Source: Candidatus Saccharimonadota bacterium
GTDB taxonomy: Bacteria; Patescibacteriota; Saccharimonadia; CAILAD01; BJGX01
Direction of reading: 5' to 3'
DNA length: 64,000 nucleotides
NCBI GenBank assembly: GCA_046350735.1
Contig: JAXLZU010000001.1
Coordinates: 574,297 to 638,296, forward strand
Positions 52,051 to 62,465 of this stretch are shown one piece after another. The position numbers were made by a program, and so were the translations under genes. Below the pieces are notes generated by a model, which worked only from the letters and a program-made list of their open reading frames with translations, did no database searches and was not told the origin of the DNA. The first letter of the stretch is position 1; each line of letters opens with the position of its first letter.

Positions 52051-53979
52051 ATGAAGCCGACGTATTTTGTGCGAGTGGACACAGCAAATTATACCGGCCA
52101 AGATGGTAAAACGTTTTGGTATAACTCTGATACTTTATTGCACGTGGGTCAGATTTGCGAGGTTCCGTTTGGTAAACGTTCGAGTCTCGGGGTGGTACTA
52201 CAAGTTAAAAAGACTCGGCCAAAAAACATTGTCGGGTTAAAGTCAATTAGTAAAATATATGATCACATACCTGTTCTGCCACACTATCTGCTCGAAACTG
52301 CCCAGTGGCTAAAAGAGTATTATGTGGCCAGCCCATACTCTGTTTGGACAACATTATTACCCTCTGGACTACGCGCCAAACCAAGAAAAGTACCTGCCTC
52401 TGCCCAGAAGAAAAAAACTAAGCCACTTAATATTCTCAACACCGAACAACAGGCAGCTTACCAGCACATTGTGCAGTCTAACAAACCAACTCTACTAGAA
52501 GGCATTACCGGATCGGGCAAGACCGAAGTGTATCTGCATCTTATAGCTAATGCTCTCAATAATAAGCAATCGGCGATATTGTTGGTACCAGAAATTATGC
52601 TTACCACCCAACTCGCCGAGAGACTATCTGAGCATTTTGGTGAGCTCTATATTGTGCATTCTGGCCTGAGTGTTGCCGAGCGCAAACGCATCTGGCTAGA
52701 GTGTAGCAGCACCTCGCAGGATAGCCCTGTAATAGTAGTGGGGCCGCGCAGTGCGCTATGGATGCCACTTTGTAACCTCGGGCTAATAATTATTGATGAG
52801 GAACATGAGCCAAGCTACAAGCAAGAATCATTTTTACGCTACAGCGCCCTACATGTTGCTGGGCATATTGCTACAACCAAACCAGCCCAGCTGGTAATGG
52901 GCAGTGCTACACCACAGGTGACTACCAAGTTTTTGGCCGACAAAAATTTCTTTTCTGTGGCAAAGCTGCATCAACGACACAATAGTAGCTTGCCCCAAAT
53001 AACCATTGTAGATAAGAACACGTTTACTGGATTGCTCTCACCCCAACTTACCGGGGCTATCCAGACAACGTTAGATGATAACAAACAGATACTTTTATTG
53101 CTCAACCGACGTGGTAGTGCAAGTAGTCTTATCTGTGAGCAGTGCGGACAAGCCACGCTCTGTCCTAATTGTGACATTGCACTGAGTTTTCACGGCGACA
53201 TTGCGCGGTTGCTATGTCATTATTGTGATTATAAACACCTGCCACCTACTAGCTGTAGTAACTGTGGTGGTCAAGTAAAATTTGTGGGAAGTGGCACACA
53301 AAAGCTCTTTGACGAAATTTCTCATCTATGGCCGCATGCCCGACTAGCCCGGCTCGATAGAGACAATGCTACCTGGCAAAATATGCAAACTCTGTTTGGC
53401 AATTTGCAGAAAGGCAAAATAGATATTGTGGTTGGTACCCAGATGATTAGCCGTGGTCTTGATATAGCCGGCTTGCGGCTAGTGGGTATCGTTGATGCCG
53501 ATACCAGCCTAGCAATACCAGACTTTGCTAGTAGTGAACGCACTTATCAGCTACTTGCCCAGACAGCTGGCCGAGCAGGCCGTCGCCAAGAATTGGGTAC
53601 GGTAATTATTCAAACACGCAACCCAAAGCAAGTTGCAATTGTCGCCGCTGCCACACACAATTACCCGCTATTTTATCAGCACGAGCTTGCCACTCGCAAA
53701 CACTACGCTTACCCTCCTTACGTTTATCTGCTAAAATTGTGGTATGCACATGCCAACCCCTCACTTGCCGAAAAACACAGTGCAGAATATATAACATCTT
53801 TACAAAAAAACCGCGCTATTCGCGCGCTCGGCCCTACCCCGGCTCTGCAAAAACGTCAAAGCGGAAAGTACATTTGGCAAGCAATTATTAAGGCCAGGTC
53901 TCGCGCCGAGTTAATAACAATTGTTGGCAATTTGCCACGGGGCTGGCAGGCTGAGTTAGACCCCGTTAGTATAATGTAA
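52051..53979 (+). CDS. priA: Primosomal protein N' (PriA helicase)
   Basis: It has Walker A GITGSGKTEVY and the DEEH box, with a Cys4 zinc finger (CEQCG..CPNCD...CHYCD...CSNCG). The start is ATG 52051 (MKPTYFVRVD). Confidence 0.9.
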   Translation: MKPTYFVRVDTANYTGQDGKTFWYNSDTLLHVGQICEVPFGKRSSLGVVLQVKKTRPKNIVGLKSISKIYDHIPVLPHYLLETAQWLKEYYVASPYSVWTTLLPSGLRAKPRKVPASAQKKKTKPLNILNTEQQAAYQHIVQSNKPTLLEGITGSGKTEVYLHLIANALNNKQSAILLVPEIMLTTQLAERLSEHFGELYIVHSGLSVAERKRIWLECSSTSQDSPVIVVGPRSALWMPLCNLGLIIIDEEHEPSYKQESFLRYSALHVAGHIATTKPAQLVMGSATPQVTTKFLADKNFFSVAKLHQRHNSSLPQITIVDKNTFTGLLSPQLTGAIQTTLDDNKQILLLLNRRGSASSLICEQCGQATLCPNCDIALSFHGDIARLLCHYCDYKHLPPTSCSNCGGQVKFVGSGTQKLFDEISHLWPHARLARLDRDNATWQNMQTLFGNLQKGKIDIVVGTQMISRGLDIAGLRLVGIVDADTSLAIPDFASSERTYQLLAQTAGRAGRRQELGTVIIQTRNPKQVAIVAAATHNYPLFYQHELATRKHYAYPPYVYLLKLWYAHANPSLAEKHSAEYITSLQKNRAIRALGPTPALQKRQSGKYIWQAIIKARSRAELITIVGNLPRGWQAELDPVSIM

Positions 53980-53983
53980 TCTT

Positions 53984-54535
53984 ATGATAAAAAAACTTGT
54001 TACCATACCCAATAAAGTCTTACGTATGAAATCGCGGCGGATTGGTTTTGTGGATGACTCAATTAAAAAAATGGCATCTGATATGATAGAGACCACGCTT
54101 AATTGGGATCACGACAGCGAAATTGGCGCGGCACTTGCGGCTATTCAGATTGGTGAGCCAATTAAATTAACCGTGGTACGCAATGATTTTGAAGACCGTA
54201 AGAATCACGACTTTACCACCCTAATTAATCCAGAAATTGTAAAACACAGCAGTGAGAAGGTTGGTGATGTAGAGGGCTGCTTGAGTGTTCCGAGTATTTA
54301 TGGCCGGGTAGATCGCTACCTTAAGGTAAAAGTAAAAGCAGAAGATTTAGAGGGCAATGAAATTCGACTTACGCTAGAAGGATTCCCGGCACGAGTGTTA
54401 CAACACGAAATTGATCATATGAACGGGGTAATTTTTTTAGATCATATTAAGAGCGCCAAAAATCTCTTTGCCATGAACGAAAACGGCAAACTTTCTCCTT
54501 TAAGTGGTGATAAGCCCAAGGTAGATGAAGTCTAA
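53984..54535 (+). CDS. def: Peptide deformylase
   Basis: It has GCLSVP and the QHEIDHMNG motifs. Confidence 0.9.
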   Translation: MIKKLVTIPNKVLRMKSRRIGFVDDSIKKMASDMIETTLNWDHDSEIGAALAAIQIGEPIKLTVVRNDFEDRKNHDFTTLINPEIVKHSSEKVGDVEGCLSVPSIYGRVDRYLKVKVKAEDLEGNEIRLTLEGFPARVLQHEIDHMNGVIFLDHIKSAKNLFAMNENGKLSPLSGDKPKVDEV

Positions 54536-55453
54536 ATGAACAAGGCAAATGCTCAATCTTTGGTTTTTTTTGGCACCGGGCAAACTAGCCTAGATGCCTT
54601 AAGGACACTGTCTGAAGAGTTTGAGATAGAAGCTGTAATTACTAAGCCAGATGATACCAGACATTCGAAGGCTCGGCCAAGCGAGGTGGCGGCATGGGCA
54701 AGACAAAATGCTATTTCGGTCTACAAGCCCACCAACAAACAAGAACTTTCCACCCTCGTGGCCGAAAAAAAGTTTCACTCTCAACTGGGTGTAGTACTCG
54801 ACTACGGAGTTATTATTCCCGAAGATGTTATTGATTCGTTCGAGCATGGAATAGTCAACAGCCATTTTTCGCTCTTACCTGCCTGGCGCGGCGCCGACCC
54901 CATACGTGCAGCTATTTTGCATGGTGATGCAGTTACCGGTGTAACAATTATGCTGATTGTTCCTGAGCTAGATGCTGGGCCAATTTTAAGTTGGGCTGAG
55001 GTTTCTTTGGATGATACCACTAACGCAATCGATCTGCGCAATCAACTCTCAGAACTAAACTGTGCCTTGTTGCCCGAAACTATTCGACTCTACGTAAGTG
55101 GCGATATCGAAGCTGTGCAGCAAGACGAAGTAGCTGCTACATTTACTACAAAAACCCACAAAGAAGATGGGTTGCTCAACCCAAATTTACATGCCAAGCA
55201 GCTGGTTCGACAAATTAATGCCTTCATTGGTTGGCCAAAGAGCTATTTTGACTGGAATGATAATAAAGTAGTTATTACCAAAGCTCTTGCCTCTACGCAC
55301 GCGGCACCCCTTGGCACACTATCGGCAGATACCAACAAACTCTACTTTGGTTGCAAAGATGGCAGTTTAGAAATTGTAGAAATCCAGCCAGCCGGCAAAA
55401 AGCCAATGGATGCCAGAAGTTTTATTAATGGGTATAAAAATTTGTTACATTAA
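54536..55453 (+). CDS. fmt: Methionyl-tRNA formyltransferase
   Basis: It has HFSLLPAWRGADPI (the SLLP motif) and the start is adjacent to the def stop. Confidence 0.9.
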   Translation: MNKANAQSLVFFGTGQTSLDALRTLSEEFEIEAVITKPDDTRHSKARPSEVAAWARQNAISVYKPTNKQELSTLVAEKKFHSQLGVVLDYGVIIPEDVIDSFEHGIVNSHFSLLPAWRGADPIRAAILHGDAVTGVTIMLIVPELDAGPILSWAEVSLDDTTNAIDLRNQLSELNCALLPETIRLYVSGDIEAVQQDEVAATFTTKTHKEDGLLNPNLHAKQLVRQINAFIGWPKSYFDWNDNKVVITKALASTHAAPLGTLSADTNKLYFGCKDGSLEIVEIQPAGKKPMDARSFINGYKNLLH

Positions 55454-55487
55454 AAACCCCAGAAATTTCCTTTCTGGGGATAATCGT

Positions 55488-56294
55488 TTAGTACGATAAA
55501 GTAGGTAGTACACCAACTACATATCCACGATAGTCATTTGCTACAAAATAAGCATTGAATCCCGCCTGCTCGAGAGCTTGCAAATACTCTTCTTTACTGT
55601 GCATCATCAGCAAATGGCGCTCGCGAAAGTGAGTTGGAGCATCATCATTACGTCGCAAAAACAGATAATGCATATCTAGCACCGACATTCGACCCTGGCT
55701 ACTACTACGGTTCATACGCACTAGCTTTAGCTCGGAGGTATCGATAACTTGCATATGCATCTCACCATCTCGCCAATCCTCGGGCAAGATCCATGGTTCG
55801 ATAATGACTACACCACCTGGCACAAGATGTTTAGCTATAGTGTTCGCTACATTACACAAATCTTGGTAAGTACGTGCGTAGCCAATCGCCGAAAACATAC
55901 ATGTAATAACCTCAAACTTGCGACCAAGAGAAAAGTTATGCATGTCGGCCCGGTGTAATGAAACACCAGGCAAACGCATTTTAGCGATAGCTAGCTGATT
56001 CTCACTAAGATCAAGACCCTCAACATGAGAAAACATCATCCTGAAATGCTCTAGATGCAGTCCAGTACCACATGCCACATCGAGCAATCGAGTAGTTTGT
56101 GGCCAAGGCCAAGACCAAGCATCGCTAAATTCTTGGGCAATGGCAAAAGCTCGCTCTGACTCAGCTTTGTAATCTTTCATAGCAGTATAGATAACGTCAT
56201 AAAACTCCGCAGAGCTAATATAGCTATCTGTAGACATACTCTGCCTTTCTGTTGAAGGTACCTCTGAGTGAGGTTCCTGAAGAAAAATTACCAA
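55488..56294 (-). CDS. Class I SAM-dependent methyltransferase (TylM1/DesVI-like)
   Basis: It has the LLDVACGTGLHLEHF SAM-binding motif I and a YDVIY N-terminal motif. Confidence 0.6.
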   Translation of the reverse strand: MVIFLQEPHSEVPSTERQSMSTDSYISSAEFYDVIYTAMKDYKAESERAFAIAQEFSDAWSWPWPQTTRLLDVACGTGLHLEHFRMMFSHVEGLDLSENQLAIAKMRLPGVSLHRADMHNFSLGRKFEVITCMFSAIGYARTYQDLCNVANTIAKHLVPGGVVIIEPWILPEDWRDGEMHMQVIDTSELKLVRMNRSSSQGRMSVLDMHYLFLRRNDDAPTHFRERHLLMMHSKEEYLQALEQAGFNAYFVANDYRGYVVGVLPTLSY

Positions 56295-56433
56295 AATATT
56301 TAGTAACTTATTACCAAGAACCTACACACTTACACTAACGTTAAACATATATTCTCCTTATTGGATTAGTTTGTTGATTAACAAAAGCAATATTACCATA
56401 AGCATTTGCCTAAGTCAATAAATTAGTAGGATT

Positions 56434-56802
56434 TTATTTTAAGAATGGTTGGAGTTTTTCGACCACCTGAGAAGGTGTAAGATCGGTCTTTACAATATAG
56501 TCGCGTGCGCCAAGTTCTTTGGCCTGCTCGATAGTTTGAGGGTCCATTACGTTAGTTAGCACGATTACTGGCAAGTCTGGAGTAAGATTCTGCTTCTTGA
56601 GAGACTTTAGCACATCTATACCATTAACGTTGGGCATCATAAGATCGAGTAAAACCAAGTCTGGTTTGTGCTCACCAATTTTGTCGAGGGCCATTTGGCC
56701 ATCGACTGCTTCTACAACCGAAAAGTCTGCCTTAGCTAGTTTTAGCTGATACATATTTCGAATAAAATCGTTGTCTTCAACAAGTAGTACTACTTTGCTC
56801 AT
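56434..56802 (-). CDS. Stand-alone response-regulator receiver (CheY-like)
   Basis: LLVEDNDFIR...DLVLLDLMMP...K has the conserved Asp and Lys. Confidence 0.85.
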   Translation of the reverse strand: MSKVVLLVEDNDFIRNMYQLKLAKADFSVVEAVDGQMALDKIGEHKPDLVLLDLMMPNVNGIDVLKSLKKQNLTPDLPVIVLTNVMDPQTIEQAKELGARDYIVKTDLTPSQVVEKLQPFLK

Positions 56803-56833
56803 ATATACATCATACTTTCTTTTTGTACCTTAC

Positions 56834-56881
56834 GTCAATCATTAATTGCCCGCTTTAGCATGTCTAGCGGCAACTTTGGCG
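56834..56881. repeat. Direct repeat copy A (~48 bp, ~83% identical to 58091..58138)
   Basis: gtcaatcattaattgcccgctttagcatgtctagcggcaactttggcg aligns with the HK 3' end copy at 58091..58138 with 8 mismatches. Its minus-strand translation ends ...AKVAARHAKAGN*, mirroring the HK C-terminus. Confidence 0.75.
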
Positions 56882-56901
56882 AAACATACCTATATTAAAA
56901 C

Positions 56902-57414
56902 CTACAGTTTAGGCTCCAGAGTTATTCTACAACGATAACCACCATCATAATTTTTATCATGGATAATGCGGTTAGGAAATAGCCTGATTATTTCGTCCCA
57001 CTCAACACTAATAGAAGTGTATTTATCACTATATTTATCTTTATATTGGTTGTAGAGTACAGGTGTAATGATAATTATACGACCCTCTTTTGTCAGTAAA
57101 GACTTCACCTTATCGAGAAAGGCTTTTTTGTCTTCCATAAAAGCAATTACTAAGTTAGCAGTAATAAGATCATACTTTTGTTTACCAAAATCGTAACTCA
57201 TAAAATCACCAACTATATCTGGCTTGGCAGCTTCCGCTAAGTCTATACCTGTGGTTTTATAACCACGATCTCTCAATTGTCGCATTAACTCACCCTCTCC
57301 ACAGCCAACATCAAGAGCAAGTCCGCCTCTAAGTTCGAGTTTGTCTAACACAATCTCACTCACAGGGGCGTACTTACTACCCTCTATATAATATTTGTTC
57401 CAATCAATTTTCAT
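56902..57414 (-). CDS. Small class I SAM-dependent methyltransferase (TehB-like)
   Basis: ALDVGCGEGELMRQL is motif I. The start is ATG 57414 (MKIDWNKY) with an AAAGGA RBS. Confidence 0.65.
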   Translation of the reverse strand: MKIDWNKYYIEGSKYAPVSEIVLDKLELRGGLALDVGCGEGELMRQLRDRGYKTTGIDLAEAAKPDIVGDFMSYDFGKQKYDLITANLVIAFMEDKKAFLDKVKSLLTKEGRIIIITPVLYNQYKDKYSDKYTSISVEWDEIIRLFPNRIIHDKNYDGGYRCRITLEPKL

Positions 57415-57468
57415 AATAATTCCTTTTTTGTCAGGGGGTAACTCACTCGAGAAACCCCCCAACAAAAG

Positions 57469-58008
57469 TTAGCTGCACTTGCCGAAGCCTCCCCCGCAGC
57501 TCTTGCAGTTGCCACGACCATCATCGCAGTCTGCCCCAGCCATCTGGTACTGAAGCAGGTCACCGAAGTCGTAAGGAGGTTGAGTATTGGCAGCAACCTC
57601 ACTCTTACAACCATCATTACCCCCACCGCCACGTACATCACAGAAGAGGGCAGTACCCCACAGCTGCGGATCATAGACGATACCGTTGGCAGCCATGAAC
57701 TCGACCGTAGCTTCACTACTAACAGCAACGGCTTCAAGTTCGGGCGTGTCGGTAGGACAGTGATGAATAAACTCGCCACACACCGCATTGCAGTACGCGG
57801 CGTACTCACGAGTGTAGAGAATGAATGTATGCCAGCCGATATCAACCAGCGCACTGGGCGTTGATGGGCAGGCAGGATTAGTACCAACCATATTCAGGAA
57901 CACGAGCGTCTCTCGAAGAATGGCCTCTGCCGTCTCACGAGGAAGCTGATGCTCCTTGCACATTCGTGCAATTATGCGGTCACCTAGTTCTTTGCTGATG
58001 GGTTGCAT
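57469..58008 (-). CDS. Cys/Gly-rich protein in a GC-rich (~52%) insert, possibly DUF1399/GRDP-like
   Basis: DIGWHTFILYTREYAAYC resembles the WHTH motif of glycine-rich-domain proteins. The C-terminus is GGGGNDGC...CDDGRGNCKSCGGGFGKCS. Confidence 0.35.
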   Translation of the reverse strand: MQPISKELGDRIIARMCKEHQLPRETAEAILRETLVFLNMVGTNPACPSTPSALVDIGWHTFILYTREYAAYCNAVCGEFIHHCPTDTPELEAVAVSSEATVEFMAANGIVYDPQLWGTALFCDVRGGGGNDGCKSEVAANTQPPYDFGDLLQYQMAGADCDDGRGNCKSCGGGFGKCS

Positions 58009-58090
58009 GAATTCTACCTTTCCGGTAGCGTTTGTAGGTGCAATCCAGCGTGTGCTAGATTAATAATATCTTATCACTAAATAACTTTTT

Positions 58091-58138
58091 GTCAATATCT
58101 AATTCCCCGCTTTAGCATGGCTAGCAGCTACTTTGGCC
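58091..58138. repeat. Direct repeat copy B (HK 3' end, includes the HK stop codon)
   Basis: This is the partner of 56834..56881. Confidence 0.75.
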
Positions 58139-60303
58139 CCAATCTTCTTACTTTCTTCTAATACTGCTTTTGGAATCCCACTTAGAGGTAGCTTAAATCC
58201 AAAGGTAGACCCCTTACCTTCTTTGCTCTCAAACCATATCTCACCGCCTTGTTGCTCTACTACACGCTTTACCAAATAGAGCCCTAGGCCGGTACCGTCT
58301 GGACGCACGCCTTGAGCGTTGGGGGCACGGAACATCTTAGTAAAGAGTTTCTTTTGCACTGCTTCTGGCACACCAATACCGTCATCAGCCACCCAAAACT
58401 CCACAAAATCACCATTAAGAACCAAGCTAACCTTTACATGCCCGCCACCATTCGGTGGGGCGCTATAATGCAAGGCGTTGTCTACAAGGTTCATTACAAC
58501 TTGGCGGGTCTTATTTTCGTCGAGTAAGATAACTGGAATCTTTTGCTTGGGAGGCTCGTACGTTAGCTTAACATTCTTGCCTTCGGCAAAGCTTTTTAGC
58601 TGCTCGAGCTCTTCGGGTACAAGTTTGTTTAGGTCTACCTGATTACCTTCTAAAAAGAATCTATTAGCATCCATACGACTTACATTAAGTAAATCGTCTA
58701 TTAAGCGGGCCATACGATTAGAGCCATCGAGCGTTTGCTCGACAATCTTAGATTGCTCTTTGGTAAGTTTTCCAAAATCCCCTTCTTCTAACATACTGGC
58801 ATAGCCTTTAACGGTAGTAAGAGGTGTACGTAGCTGATGAGAAGCCATACTAATAAATTCATCTTTGGCTTTATCGAGCTCTTTTAGCTGATCGTTAGCA
58901 TGGCGCAGCTGAGCAGTACGTTGCCTTACCTTCTCGGCCAATGTTTCGCTAAAGAGTTGGATTTCTTTATAACTTAGTGCATTAGCCATAGCTACACTCA
59001 CTTCGTTGGCAATAATCTTAAGTACCGCCAGGTCTTGGTCGTTATAAATATCGCCACTCTTCTTTTCGCCAAGTAGCATATAGCCAATAAATTTCTCACT
59101 AGTACGCAGGGCTAGGCTAATAGTAATGCCGTATTTTTGCATTAGCTCTTTTCTTTCACCGCTTTGCAAATCGTCTACAACTAGCATTACTCGCCCCAAC
59201 TTACTTAGCTCGTTTGGACTTATTTTGCCATCACCATTTTTAAAGACATTGTTCTCATAAAATAATTGATTCTCACCAAAAACAACAATTTCTGCTTTCT
59301 CAATCTTTATTTGTTTACTTAGCTCACGCAAGACTCGCGAGCTAACTTTGTCTAGGTCTATTTCTGAAGCTAAGATTCGTCCAATCTCATTTACCAACGC
59401 TTGGCTATCATATCTATCACGGTAAAAAATCTTGTTAGAAATACGCTCGAAGAATCGCCGCAGCGGCGCAAAAGTAAAGGCAAAAATGACAGTTAGAATT
59501 ATATAAAATCCCTCTTGTAGTTGTGGATTTATCTTATTTAGAAAAATAGAAGAAACCCTAAAAGCAATTAATCCATACAAGAGTGCAATCACACCAATTG
59601 TGAGTGAGTATGTAACTGCCCTAACAGCAACAAGACGAATATCAAATAACCGATGTCTTATAATAGCAAAGGCAATAATTGCTATGAAAGCTAGAATAGA
59701 TAAAATAATTGCATACTGTGCTACTGCACTAGACGAATAGAAAAATAAGATGATGAGATTAATTACTGTAGCTTCACCAAAACCAAACATAATAAGATAG
59801 TTTGTTGCTCGCTCGTTTTTTGGTTTTTTTATAGTATTTATAATTAAAATAACGAGGCCATAAATTACATATACCCCTAGAAGCAAAAGAAGAAGAACAT
59901 ACGATATTGGCATATCATTAACTGAAATACCTAATGCAGAAACCGCTACGTCATTTACACCATAAGCTGTAAGGTTTATAACTGCCAGTATTAAACAGGG
60001 CAATAACAGTATTATTTCCCATATGTTGCCTGTCTTCTTGTTTGTAAATCCCCTAAAAAATAATAAAAGAAAATAGCCAATAAAAATTGATGTAGCAATA
60101 GAGAGTCGAATAAATATAACATTTAAGCTAGGATTAATATTTAGTTGAGCCAATGCCTGCCAACTTAACCAGATTGCAGTAGTGAATGTGGTTAGGAAAA
60201 AGGCAGTTACACCAGGTGATTTTCTTCTTAGATAAGTTAAGCCTCCTATAAAAAAGAGGGCAATAATCATCGGCACATATAGAAGCGTTTGAATGACATA
60301 CAT
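58099..60303 (-). CDS. Sensor histidine kinase with a multi-TM N-terminal sensor
   Basis: It has about 9 TM helices, then HisKA (ISMASHQLRTPLTTVKGY) and HATPase_c (N, G1, G2 boxes: DDGIGV, GTGLGLYL). Confidence 0.85.
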   Translation of the reverse strand: MYVIQTLLYVPMIIALFFIGGLTYLRRKSPGVTAFFLTTFTTAIWLSWQALAQLNINPSLNVIFIRLSIATSIFIGYFLLLFFRGFTNKKTGNIWEIILLLPCLILAVINLTAYGVNDVAVSALGISVNDMPISYVLLLLLLGVYVIYGLVILIINTIKKPKNERATNYLIMFGFGEATVINLIILFFYSSSAVAQYAIILSILAFIAIIAFAIIRHRLFDIRLVAVRAVTYSLTIGVIALLYGLIAFRVSSIFLNKINPQLQEGFYIILTVIFAFTFAPLRRFFERISNKIFYRDRYDSQALVNEIGRILASEIDLDKVSSRVLRELSKQIKIEKAEIVVFGENQLFYENNVFKNGDGKISPNELSKLGRVMLVVDDLQSGERKELMQKYGITISLALRTSEKFIGYMLLGEKKSGDIYNDQDLAVLKIIANEVSVAMANALSYKEIQLFSETLAEKVRQRTAQLRHANDQLKELDKAKDEFISMASHQLRTPLTTVKGYASMLEEGDFGKLTKEQSKIVEQTLDGSNRMARLIDDLLNVSRMDANRFFLEGNQVDLNKLVPEELEQLKSFAEGKNVKLTYEPPKQKIPVILLDENKTRQVVMNLVDNALHYSAPPNGGGHVKVSLVLNGDFVEFWVADDGIGVPEAVQKKLFTKMFRAPNAQGVRPDGTGLGLYLVKRVVEQQGGEIWFESKEGKGSTFGFKLPLSGIPKAVLEESKKIGAKVAASHAKAGN

Positions 60304-61274: not shown

Positions 61275-62465
61275 TTAACCATTTGAAATGGAATAACATG
61301 CATATAGGGTCACATCTACCCGTTTTGGCTCGCTAACTGTAAGTTTTCCGGTCTCTTCAGCATACTGTTTAACAAGTGCTGGTATGTACTCTTTAGACCT
61401 ATTCGTACTCTCAAAACAAACTTTGTAATTTTTGCCCGTGCGAAAAGCAAATTCAGTAGCCAACTGGAGTGTTGGGCGAGAATAACCGCCAATGCCATCG
61501 GCTCTTGCAACAATCTCTGGGAAGAAAAGTAATGATTCATCATCGGCAATCTCCAAATTCTCAGCATTGAAAAATTTAGGATTCAACCAATCGCACTGAT
61601 CCATATCGGTAAGAAAACACATCCAACAAACTGGTTCTCCATCTACAAAATACACACTAAATGTGGTGTCAGGATTGTCTAGCTTGGCTTCAAAACCAGA
61701 ACGTGCTTCTTCCATAACTATTGGATGGTATTCACCAAGATCTTGAAATCTATCGAGATAGAGTTGCCACATCTTTTCTCGTAAGCCCCCCGGAATATCA
61801 CTTCCCTTTAGTAAGCTCGCCCCGTTTTCTGGCAAAAGCTCGTACTCACCCGATTCAACCGACTCCCGAAACTGACTATAGATAGTAGGGTCTGCACCCA
61901 CAGCTTTAGGCTGCTCTATTTGTCTAACCGAGGTAACGTAAAGCTCGAGGGCCGCTTGGAGATTATGCTCTTTGTCACCAACAGTATGATCAAATAATGG
62001 AATAGAACTAACTTCCTTGCCAAGTGTACTAATTAATGCTTCAAATTCAGTTTTAACCAAACTTTGCTTTGCATCATAGTCGAAAAACACACAAATATCA
62101 TGTGGTTTTTGAGCTTTTAGTAATTCGGCTATTACTGATTTTATATCTGTGCTAGCCATATCTGCAGGTAGTGCATAATAATAGACTTCTTCTGCATTTT
62201 TGCCATTTTGTGTAACAATTTGCTTAGTACGTTCTGCATCGTATCCTTCAGCATATTCAATTGGAACTAATACAGGAAATTTGATTCCATCGATAGTTAC
62301 AACAATTGTTCTCGGATCTCTTAATGCAGTTTCGGCTAGTTCTTTATCAAGCAACCCAAGTCGGCGAGCGCCTTCAGTATGTGCATCGCAAACAGAACGG
62401 TAGTATTCAAAATCGAAATCAGCAGGTGTCTTTTGCTCTTGTGAAGTTATAGGTTCGTTATCCAT
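61275..62465 (-). CDS. Hypothetical protein (396 aa), possible acyltransferase-like C-terminal half
   Basis: It is co-operonic with the decarboxylase (a 9-nt gap). ADGIGGYSRPTLQLATEFAF resembles an acyl-CoA-binding motif. Confidence 0.35.
   Translation of the reverse strand: MDNEPITSQEQKTPADFDFEYYRSVCDAHTEGARRLGLLDKELAETALRDPRTIVVTIDGIKFPVLVPIEYAEGYDAERTKQIVTQNGKNAEEVYYYALPADMASTDIKSVIAELLKAQKPHDICVFFDYDAKQSLVKTEFEALISTLGKEVSSIPLFDHTVGDKEHNLQAALELYVTSVRQIEQPKAVGADPTIYSQFRESVESGEYELLPENGASLLKGSDIPGGLREKMWQLYLDRFQDLGEYHPIVMEEARSGFEAKLDNPDTTFSVYFVDGEPVCWMCFLTDMDQCDWLNPKFFNAENLEIADDESLLFFPEIVARADGIGGYSRPTLQLATEFAFRTGKNYKVCFESTNRSKEYIPALVKQYAEETGKLTVSEPKRVDVTLYACYSISNG

Follow-up and report, generated by a model that had tools for sequence, protein, structure and literature searches.

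The window, which is the whole 64-kb stretch of DNA that was analysed, contains a Saccharibacteria two-component operon. The sensor histidine kinase (58099..60303, minus strand) is an intact protein of 734 aa with a 7TM sensor, HisKA and HATPase_c (Pfam matches HisKA_7TM, HisKA and HATPase_c). It ends in ...SHAKAGN-TAG, and its homologs are named Candidatus Saccharibacteria. The response regulator (56434..56802, minus strand) is a stand-alone receiver domain of 122 aa (Pfam Response_reg, E 4e-26). Between the two genes lies a unique insert of 1203 bp (56881..58083, minus strand), which alignment showed to be missing at the empty sites of relatives.

The insert carries two genes, both on the minus strand. 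One encodes a UCP032817-like protein of 179 aa with a Cys/Gly-rich tail (57469..58008). PF27765 ('UCP032817-like') was listed in the precomputed Pfam hits for the exact 179-aa protein and for all 120 listed homologs, and this family is also labelled 'glycine-rich domain-containing protein'. The protein comprises a conserved helical N-terminal domain, in which W59, H60, H82 and H83 are invariant and C73 and D87 nearly invariant, followed by the disordered Cys/Gly-rich tail. The conserved motif is PSxLVDIGWHTFILYTREY...FIHHxPxD. The gene has a GC content of 53.9% (GC3 53.3%) in a window of 42.1% GC. The other gene encodes a small class I SAM-dependent methyltransferase of 170 aa (56902..57414, GC 36.5%), which matched Pfam Methyltransf_23 (E 6e-14), _31, _11, _12 and _25. 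A stable hairpin (57426..57467, minus strand; fold -26.1 kcal/mol, z -3.8) lies between the two genes, and its sequence is the same in the window, in the chromosomal locus L091 and in the phage-like contig L176. A preliminary description of this locus had placed a SAM methyltransferase and a GC-rich Cys/Gly gene of foreign composition between two repeats, and the Pfam match and the GC values agree with it.

The repeat search returned one outstanding direct-repeat family only, namely 56827-56880 and 58084-58137, with a length of 54 nt, an identity of 81% and a spacing of 1257 nt. The direct repeats of about 83% identity reported earlier (56834..56881 and 58091..58138) are real, with 39/48 identical positions there, and their true extent is slightly longer. 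A degenerate 47-mer built from both copies occurred exactly 2 times in the 64-kb window, whereas 100 shuffles gave an expectation of 0.00. Within 56300-58400, ungapped direct repeats scored 26 at best, compared with 10.8 ± 1.0 (maximum 14) in 200 Markov-simulated sequences. Each copy comprises the last 12 codons of the kinase, the stop codon and, beyond it, a TTGAC box that is the -35 element of a promoter-like site. In the proximal copy (58084..58137) these are located at 58102-58137, 58099-58101 (TAG) and 58090-58095 (TTGACA). Read on the minus strand, ...AKVAASHAKAGN-TAG, it forms the genuine end of the kinase ORF (734 aa). The distal copy (56827..56880) comprises an orphan 12-codon kinase tail at 56845-56880, TAA at 56842-56844 and a TTGACG box at 56833-56838. 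On the minus strand it reads AKVAARHAKAGN-TAA, it starts 27 nt past the methyltransferase stop codon, and no kinase sequence lies in front of it. The preliminary description had likewise taken the right copy as the authentic kinase 3′-end and the left copy as a kinase tail with no gene in front of it. The flanking repeats, as coding sequence, showed no significant fold (z +1.3 and +0.4). The duplication at the insert is about 45–54 nt and at least 31 nt in length, and a 31-nt stretch is identical between the two copies in L091.

Two promoter-like sites were found by the consensus scan. The cassette site, TTGACA-16-TAAGAT (58068..58095, minus strand), is TG-extended and a consensus match only (10/12), and it is located upstream of the Cys/Gly-tailed gene with its -35 box inside the proximal repeat. 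The native site of the regulator, TTGACG-18-TATGAT (56809..56838, minus strand), has a -10 box ending 6 nt before the ATG. Empty loci have this site too, and there it begins 5 nt past the kinase stop codon. It had been proposed that the insertion uncouples the kinase from the regulator, and this was overstated, since the regulator at the empty sites already has its own promoter-like site, which the insertion leaves intact in the distal copy. The kinase would keep its full-length tail and the regulator its own predicted promoter. The cassette may be transcribed from its own sigma-70-like predicted promoter, possibly together with read-through from the kinase gene.

The comparison of relatives revealed the empty site that the preliminary description had proposed to look for. 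In L093, L096, L195, L196 and L200, the kinase stop codon is followed by 39–45 nt and then by the regulator, with one repeat copy. Further empty sites with one copy are L099 and L191, and the regulator directly follows the kinase in the contig of P0009. In the empty-site relatives a single kinase is connected to the regulator by precisely the repeat sequence, and no relative was found to have two kinases. Empty sites occurred only in lineages other than that of the window (80–89% nucleotide identity). Occupied sites with both copies were found in L091, L197 and every contig of the species to which the window belongs. L097 and L098 also contain the cassette genes; these loci end before the kinase, so that the distal copy alone is visible. 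Relatives with both genes at the locus (L091, L097, L098 and L197) carry the repeat structure, and none had the genes there without it. Among the displayed loci of independent assemblies with identical proteins, all occupied ones that include both ends had both copies, so the repeat structure is not an assembly artefact. Occupied and empty loci share an identical regulator protein. A larger element at the kinase-regulator site was found in no relative, and all occupied lineages have the same minimal two genes. Neither gene was present in any of 156 more distant kinase- or regulator-anchored loci. The empty one-copy sites, the occupied two-copy sites and the 156 distant loci without the genes identify the module as a gain polymorphism. 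It is a derived insertion between kinase and regulator, and its presence varies among related lineages. The data support an insertion that duplicated the kinase 3′-end. This gene-gain polymorphism is real but fairly ordinary, and it does not overturn current ideas.

The module is also carried by phage-like contigs, which the preliminary description had missed. The same gene pair was found on two phage-like contigs and at one other chromosomal site, and no flanking repeats surround the module at these other sites. The insert core (57983-56993, 991 nt of the window) was 82.7% identical to the phage-like L176 over 1036 aligned positions (blastn). The genes of L176 and L177 include RusA, a Cas4-like exonuclease, a CHAP endolysin and a Laminin_G tail-fibre protein, and those of L180 and L181 include tail, HNH and CHAP genes. 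The module is located between early genes and lysis/tail genes in L176 and L180, and a promoter-like site (TTGACA...) is located upstream of it in L176 too. The window methyltransferase had 85% amino-acid identity with the L176 copy; at the nucleotide level it was about equally near the phage copy (82.5%) and the chromosomal L091 copy (81.7%). The homologs of the endolysin of the phage-like contigs are all from metagenomic contigs. We infer the host of the phage-like contigs only from the DNA in common and from GC contents that match.

The Cys/Gly-tailed gene is GC-rich wherever it was found. Its GC3 was 70–74% in the phage-like contigs, 68% in L091, 53% in the window and 44% in L178, whereas the backgrounds all have 41–42% GC. 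Neighbouring genes had a GC3 of about 30–42%, compared with 53–74% for the UCP032817-like gene. The deviant GC3 and the phage copies indicate that this gene was acquired from outside. Its remoter relatives are from Actinobacteria and Streptomyces phages. Actinobacteria are known to serve as hosts for Saccharibacteria, and the high-GC gene with such relatives hints at gene traffic across the epibiont-host-phage triangle.

Mobility genes were searched for at several levels. The insert had been described as lacking an integrase; neither an integrase nor a transposase was found in it or in the ORFs of at least 120 aa across the 64-kb window. No integrase or other recombinase was found in the ±5 kb examined of the phage-like contigs. 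The kinase-tail (attP-like) sequence was absent from the partial loci L176, L177, L180 and L181, and a kinase-tail pattern scan of IMG/VR gave 0 matches. No inverted repeats were detected at the cassette ends by the repeat search. A donor arrangement, that is, kinase and module without the remnant, was absent from the occupied, empty and distant loci compared. A transposon or insertion sequence was rejected on the lack of inverted repeats at the insert ends and of a transposase in the cassette and the 64-kb window, and on the duplication of at least 31 nt. An integron gene cassette was rejected on the lack of an integrase and on the repeats, which are coding sequence without significant fold.

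The repeat copies are hybrids of host and cassette sequence. Their outer parts match the empty-site allele of their own lineage, which is HAKAGN-TAA-TGATTGACG in lineage A and HAKSGT-TAG-TAATTGACG in lineage B, and the right part of the distal copy does not differ from the one copy that L195, L196 and L200 have at their empty sites. The inner parts, AATTAGATATTGACAAAAA and AAAGTTGCCGCTAG, are common to the window and L091. AATTAGATATTGACAAAAA is the downstream part of the proximal copy and runs on into the cassette, and AAAGTTGCCGCTAG differs from the host alleles at synonymous sites only. The central 14–15 nt are lineage-specific in parallel in both copies, being CATGCTAAAGCGGG in the window lineage and CATGCAAAATCTGG in the L091 lineage. 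Identity along the locus forms a mosaic: between the window and L091, fmt-def is 97.5% identical and the kinase 82%, and kinase windows range from 82% to 99%. This mosaic indicates a recombining population.

Capture of a phage or foreign module by general recombination, followed by allele exchange in a recombining population, is in our view the best explanation, with a somewhat better than even chance of being right. The module would have been captured from phage or foreign DNA through short or no homology and without an integrase or transposase of its own. One route would be homology-facilitated illegitimate recombination following DNA uptake. Another would be the entry of a circular fragment by a Campbell-type single crossover, perhaps with the aid of phage recombination functions. 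In either event the kinase tail of the recipient may have been left beside the regulator as an orphan copy. Later, the occupied and empty alleles would have been swapped by frequent homologous recombination among naturally competent bacteria, and the outer parts of both repeat copies overwritten in the same way. The repeats would also permit precise loss of the module. Natural competence is described for Saccharibacteria in literature on the group, not on the present organism (PMC10187176, PMC10633639), and a model has been described in which homology-facilitated illegitimate recombination leaves the 3′-ends of genes orphaned (PMC5361080 and references therein). Several points count against capture. 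Sequence by itself does not allow the founding event to be retraced, the illegitimate route requires a donor with the module already beside a kinase tail, a single old insertion needs later conversion or homogenisation to give the parallel central 14–15 nt, and the phage-like contigs may carry an integrase beyond the ±5 kb examined.

Integrase-mediated integration, too, classically leaves behind a duplication of 45 nt that restores a gene's 3′-end. A temperate phage or integrative element with its attB in the kinase tail could have used a tyrosine or serine integrase, replaced the 3′-end and made attL and attR; the element would then have decayed to two genes, or a mini-element would have been mobilised in trans. 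We consider this rival weaker than recombination-based capture and unlikely. The direct repeats flank the insert and rebuild the 3′-end of the target gene with the kinase ORF intact, as in integrative elements and prophages at 3′-ends, which also share with this locus direct repeats of about 45 nt restoring the reading frame, empty sites in relatives and hybrid host/element copies. The 31 nt identical in both L091 copies, the phage-borne module, the attL/attR look of repeats with host-specific outer and travelling inner parts, and the host-type central regions parallel in two lineages all fit this reading. Unlike such elements, however, the insert is 1.2 kb long, and no integrase was found in the cassette, the 64-kb window or the visible parts of the phage-like contigs. 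No attP-like kinase tail was found in the phage loci or IMG/VR, no larger element occupies the site in any relative, and the module occurs at other sites without repeats. A reciprocal crossover alone cannot give a host-type central region in both copies. The preliminary description had proposed either site-specific integration or repeat-mediated cassette capture; capture is nearer to the data and integration is unproven, and the decayed attL/attR element it had suggested found no positive evidence in these searches.

The parallel central 14–15 nt would be directly accounted for by repeated homology-guided insertion. We speculate that the module may be an integrase-free 'homing' cassette, a small circle with the kinase-tail arms AAAGTTGCCGCTAG ... 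AATTAGATATTGAC that shuttles between Saccharibacteria phages and chromosomes and re-inserts repeatedly at the kinase-regulator junction by short-homology recombination, with the GC-rich gene coming ultimately from the actinobacterial hosts of the epibionts or the phages of those hosts. This would explain the lineage's own central sequence in both copies, and we regard it as rather improbable.

It is improbable that the whole clade inherited the cassette from its ancestor and that the 'empty' sites are secondary precise deletions between the repeat copies. Direct repeats of 45–54 nt permit such deletion, empty and occupied alleles occur side by side within both lineages, and the window-L091 divergence of the cassette (about 82–85%) resembles that of the flanks. 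Against this, the genes are missing from all more distant relatives (L099, L191, the contig of P0009 and the 156 distant loci), and both the deviant GC3 of the UCP032817-like gene and the phage copies speak for acquisition. Secondary loss may still account for some individual empty sites.

A long target-site duplication, made by staggered cleavage by a transposase-like or casposase-like enzyme in trans, is very improbable. The fill-in would give host-type central 14–15 nt in both copies and both lineages, as found, but neither terminal inverted repeats nor, in the cassette and the 64-kb window, a transposase was detected, and a duplication of >30 nt is atypical for transposons. The inner arms are clear kinase-coding sequence (AAAGTTGCCGCTAG, synonymous differences only), hence not element ends, and the other module copies were found without 14–17-nt duplications. 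That the left repeat is all that remains of another kinase gene, decayed after the two-component system was duplicated in tandem, is hardly credible: its orientation and its position directly upstream of the regulator are right, but only 12 codons are left, 27 nt past the methyltransferase stop codon and with no further kinase similarity, the empty-site relatives join one kinase to the regulator through exactly the same sequence, and no relative has two kinases.

The inserted module can be compared with known systems. Phage 'morons' are autonomous accessory modules exchanged with host chromosomes. The present module resembles them in its small size, promoter-like site, deviant base composition, position between functional modules of phage-like contigs, variable presence and DNA-level sharing with host chromosomes. 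Unlike morons, it is free-standing in a two-component operon outside any prophage, and the host of the phage is a putative one. In homology-facilitated illegitimate recombination of naturally transformable bacteria, and in the effector loci of Rhs, CDI and T6SS with their arrays of 'orphaned' 3′-ends (PMC5361080 and references therein), new DNA also lies downstream of a conserved gene segment and the former 3′-end is pushed downstream as a direct repeat with the new 3′-end, in organisms that are, or here may be, naturally competent and with no dedicated mobility gene. The 12-codon tail at 56845-56880 has this arrangement, being downstream of the new DNA and a direct repeat with the functional end. 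The present orphan differs in having only 12 codons, a histidine kinase anchor, no toxin/immunity logic and no donor found. Integron gene cassettes are likewise small, integrase-less and in the same orientation as their neighbours, but here IntI, attI and an attC-like imperfect palindrome are lacking, two genes with their own promoter-like site are present, and the flanks are duplicated target sequence instead of attC.

The locus provides a useful, sequence-resolved case of genes passing between phage-like elements and the very small genomes of Saccharibacteria (CPR/Patescibacteria): the occupied and the empty allele are known, as are the two junctions and the counterpart carried by a phage-like contig. 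It suggests that accessory genes can enter reduced genomes without a dedicated mobility gene. Genetic work on Saccharibacteria might draw on it for natural insertion sites and for short homology arms. The kinase-regulator-fmt locus is a small hot spot where methyltransferase-containing inserts are gained and lost. A second methyltransferase (55488-56237), also missed earlier, represents another independent insertion or deletion at the same locus.

The two-gene cassette between the histidine kinase and its response regulator is a module that also occurs in phage-like contigs. Its insertion here is derived, and duplicate copies of the kinase tail and −35 box lie at its two ends. The window has a GC content of 42%. 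The kinase, whose homologs are annotated as Candidatus Saccharibacteria, is a 7TM protein encoded on the minus strand (60303–58099). It is followed on the same strand by the cassette, which encodes a 179-aa Cys/Gly-tailed protein (58008–57469; PF27765, "UCP032817-like", in the precomputed Pfam annotation) and a 170-aa SAM methyltransferase (57414–56902). The regulator, a 122-aa stand-alone receiver protein (56802–56434, minus), comes next. A second methyltransferase of 249 aa (56237–55488, minus) lies between the regulator and fmt, and fmt, def, and priA lie beyond it on the plus strand.

The repeat search confirmed direct repeats that duplicate the kinase 3′-end. The two 54-nt copies (56827–56880 and 58084–58137) are 81% identical and spaced 1257 nt apart. 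A degenerate 47-mer made from both copies occurred exactly twice in the 64 kb against zero expected, and the top direct-repeat score in the region was 26, compared with 10.8 ± 1.0 in simulated sequences. The kinase gene genuinely ends in the right, proximal copy, AKVAASHAKAGN-TAG. The left, distal copy is the orphan that it had been taken for, AKVAARHAKAGN-TAA, located 27 nt past the stop of the methyltransferase gene and not preceded by kinase sequence. In both copies, the repeat includes a TTGAC box beyond the stop codon. This box forms the −35 element of a promoter-like site, namely TTGACA-16-TAAGAT ahead of the cassette (proximal repeat) and TTGACG-18-TATGAT ahead of the regulator (distal repeat). 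RNA folding of the repeats gave no significant structure, and Rfam gave no match. The two-copy arrangement was found again in independent assemblies from many samples and is therefore not an artefact. One public gene call (L010, 2152–2724) lengthens the methyltransferase from 170 aa to 190 aa by reading across two TAG codons and on into the orphan kinase tail, which is most likely a gene-calling artefact. The orphan remnant is in frame with the methyltransferase in the window's lineage and out of frame in L091, a related locus.

Relatives were found by looking up identical proteins and by scanning metagenomes with the regulator. Empty sites, in which the kinase is directly followed by the regulator, have 39–58 nt from the kinase stop codon to the regulator. 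They were found in L093 (kinase 70% identical), L096 (kinase 93% identical over residues 267–733), L099, L191, and, with a regulator protein identical to that of the window, L195, L196, and L200; the contig of protein P0009 is empty by gene order only. L093, L096, L195, L196, and L200 each have the repeat motif just once, as expected if the DNA between kinase and regulator had been inserted. L091 and L197 carry the same two genes and both repeat copies. L097 and L098 are also occupied, and being cut before the kinase they show the distal copy alone. Relatives with the same genes at this locus and no repeats were looked for and not observed. A set of 156 more remote loci, anchored on the kinase or the regulator, contained neither cassette gene; together with the empty relatives, this indicates that the insertion is derived and varies among related lineages.

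Comparison across lineages showed that the repeat copies are hybrids. The right part of the distal copy is each lineage's own empty-site allele: CATGCTAAAGCGGGCAATTAATGATTGACG in the window, L195, L196, and L200, and CATGCAAAATCTGGTACATAGT(A/G)ATTGACG in L091 and L098, the same as in L093 and L096. The window and L091 have the same right part of the proximal copy, AATTAGATATTGACAAAAA, which runs on into the cassette, and they also share the left 14 nt of the distal copy, AAAGTTGCCGCTAG. The inner arms differ from the host kinase alleles at synonymous positions only. This marks them as true kinase-tail sequence, so that about 45 nt of kinase tail were duplicated or imported in the founding event. 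In both copies, in parallel, the central 14–15 nt are lineage-specific, which needs either later homogenisation or repeated insertion.

Sequence identity forms a pronounced mosaic along the locus. In 150-nt windows, L091 is from 45% (sensor domain) to 99% identical to the window, and fmt-def is 97.5% identical whereas the kinase is 82% identical. The fmt-def tract (window 53955–55457, L091 9934–11433) indicates recent homologous recombination between otherwise diverged lineages. The N-terminal 7TM sensor region of the kinase (59500–60303) is hypervariable, with 40–56% nt identity among relatives, and the catalytic half is 82–99% identical in sharp mosaic blocks, which suggests that the sensor part is under diversifying selection or subject to allele swapping. 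Each repeat copy would have its outer part replaced by incoming alleles as far as the homology edge, and the hybrid repeats are the pattern predicted by such replacement in a recombining population.

The module is present at the locus in some lineages and missing in others, no recombinase dedicated to it was seen, and its other sites lack repeats. We lean slightly towards capture of the module by general recombination. One route would be homology-facilitated illegitimate recombination after DNA uptake, for which an orphaned-3′-end model has been described (PMC5361080); Saccharibacteria are naturally competent (PMC10187176, PMC10633639). Another would be a Campbell-type single crossover with a circular fragment. 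Homologous recombination may afterwards have spread alleles, evened out the repeat copies, and occasionally led to loss. The preliminary description had read the duplicated kinase end as a sign of site-specific integration or repeat-mediated cassette capture. The insertion and the duplication stand, but integration by an integrase, with either later decay or mobilisation in trans, is unproven, and at present we disfavour it as rather unlikely. The insert has no integrase, as described earlier, and no integrase or transposase family matched among the ORFs of at least 120 aa in the 64-kb window, which were housekeeping, type I restriction-modification, and heliorhodopsin genes and a few without any family. 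The kinase-tail sequence is absent from the phage loci, and its pattern had 0 matches in IMG/VR. An ancestral cassette, with empty sites produced by secondary deletion, is less probable still in view of the empty relatives and the distant loci. A long target-site duplication by an unknown enzyme is very doubtful; the cassette ends have no inverted repeats. That the left repeat is a relic of a second kinase is the least credible reading.

The phage connection is newly found here. The closest homologs of the Cys/Gly protein beyond this locus are in phage-like contigs, again paired with a methyltransferase. Its amino-acid identity is 74% in L176 and L177, which carry RusA, Cas4-like exonuclease, CHAP endolysin, putative holin-like, and Laminin_G tail-fibre genes, and 53% in L180 and L181, contigs with tail, HNH, and CHAP genes. 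Window 57983–56993 shares 82.7% DNA identity with L176, and the window methyltransferase is equally close to the phage copy (82.5% nt) and that of L091 (81.7%). Outside the module, the phage loci have no DNA in common with any Saccharibacteria locus. In a third context, L178, the gene pair is convergent and lies between rpsT, holA, fpg and polA, rpoD. No flanking repeats surround L178 or the phage copies. The cassette would belong to the known kind of phage-shared accessory modules that are captured by recombination.

A hairpin lies between the cassette genes (57426–57467, minus; −26.1 kcal/mol, z −3.8), at the boundary of the GC-rich and AT-rich genes. Its sequence is letter-for-letter the same in the window, L091, and L176. 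The three also agree fully over about 80–95 nt around it, with flanking coding DNA at about 77–85% identity. This conservation reflects either strong constraint (RNA processing, attenuation, or a translational-coupling element) or recent exchange of the segment.

The foreign composition attributed to the Cys/Gly gene was borne out, as it is GC-rich in every context where it was found. Its GC3 falls from 70–74% in the phage-like contigs through 68% (L091) and 53% (the window) to 44% (L178), against backgrounds of 41–42% GC. Such a gradient fits a gene that came from a high-GC source and was then ameliorated. Remoter homologs, with approximately 40–49% identity over the N-terminal domain, occur in Actinobacteria such as Amycolatopsis and Streptosporangium, where they are named "glycine-rich domain-containing protein", and in nine IMG/VR contigs, seven of which have 66–70% GC and none an adjacent methyltransferase. 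Streptomyces phages such as Kromp have homologs at 29–37% identity. The known hosts of Saccharibacteria are Actinobacteria. Some Saccharibacteria phages are co-targeted by actinobacterial CRISPR spacers (PMC10746230). A route of the gene through the triangle of epibiont, actinobacterial host, and phage is plausible.

The N-terminal domain of the Cys/Gly protein is a confidently predicted helical fold, for which no solved structural relative was found. W59, H60, H82, and H83 are invariant, and C73 and D87 nearly so. The tail is disordered and Cys/Gly-rich. The low-GC versions of the gene are consistently paired with a small-molecule-type methyltransferase, which suggests that the two proteins may act together. 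The module did not match known defence systems.

The uncoupling of kinase and regulator proposed earlier is probably modest, because the regulator appears to retain a promoter-like site that empty sites also have; the full-length kinase tail also seems to be retained. A gap of 6 nt separates the −10-like box of the regulator, TATGAT, from the ATG, and nothing resembling a Shine-Dalgarno sequence is seen there (56803–56838), so the regulator mRNA may be leaderless. Unlike the regulator, the two cassette genes have AAGG-type ribosome-binding sites. Transcription of the cassette could both start at its own promoter-like site and read through from the kinase, since no terminator-like site was found after it.

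The second methyltransferase and the spacer 56238–56433 represent a separate insertion or deletion, around which no direct repeats were found. This gene is missing in L091, L093, L096, L196, and L200, where the ends of the regulator and fmt overlap. It is present in L195, which lacks the first cassette, and L099 has a 50% identical homolog at the same position. In L091 (1–1899), a nitroreductase-family gene and then a YcaO gene, an azoline-type peptide-modification pair, lie approximately 4 kb upstream of the kinase, with no equivalent at that place in the window; a tie to the Cys-rich tail protein is speculative. A 396-aa ORF without a Pfam or NCBIfam family (61275–62465, minus) adjoins the ornithine/arginine decarboxylase gene. 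Its gene order is kept in relatives, with a 399-aa ORF at the same position in L094. Unrelated to the cassette, the stretch at approximately 3300–24900 (L202) contains a type I restriction-modification system (HsdS, HsdR) into which an AAA-ATPase gene is inserted, as well as one heliorhodopsin and one sigma-70 family gene.
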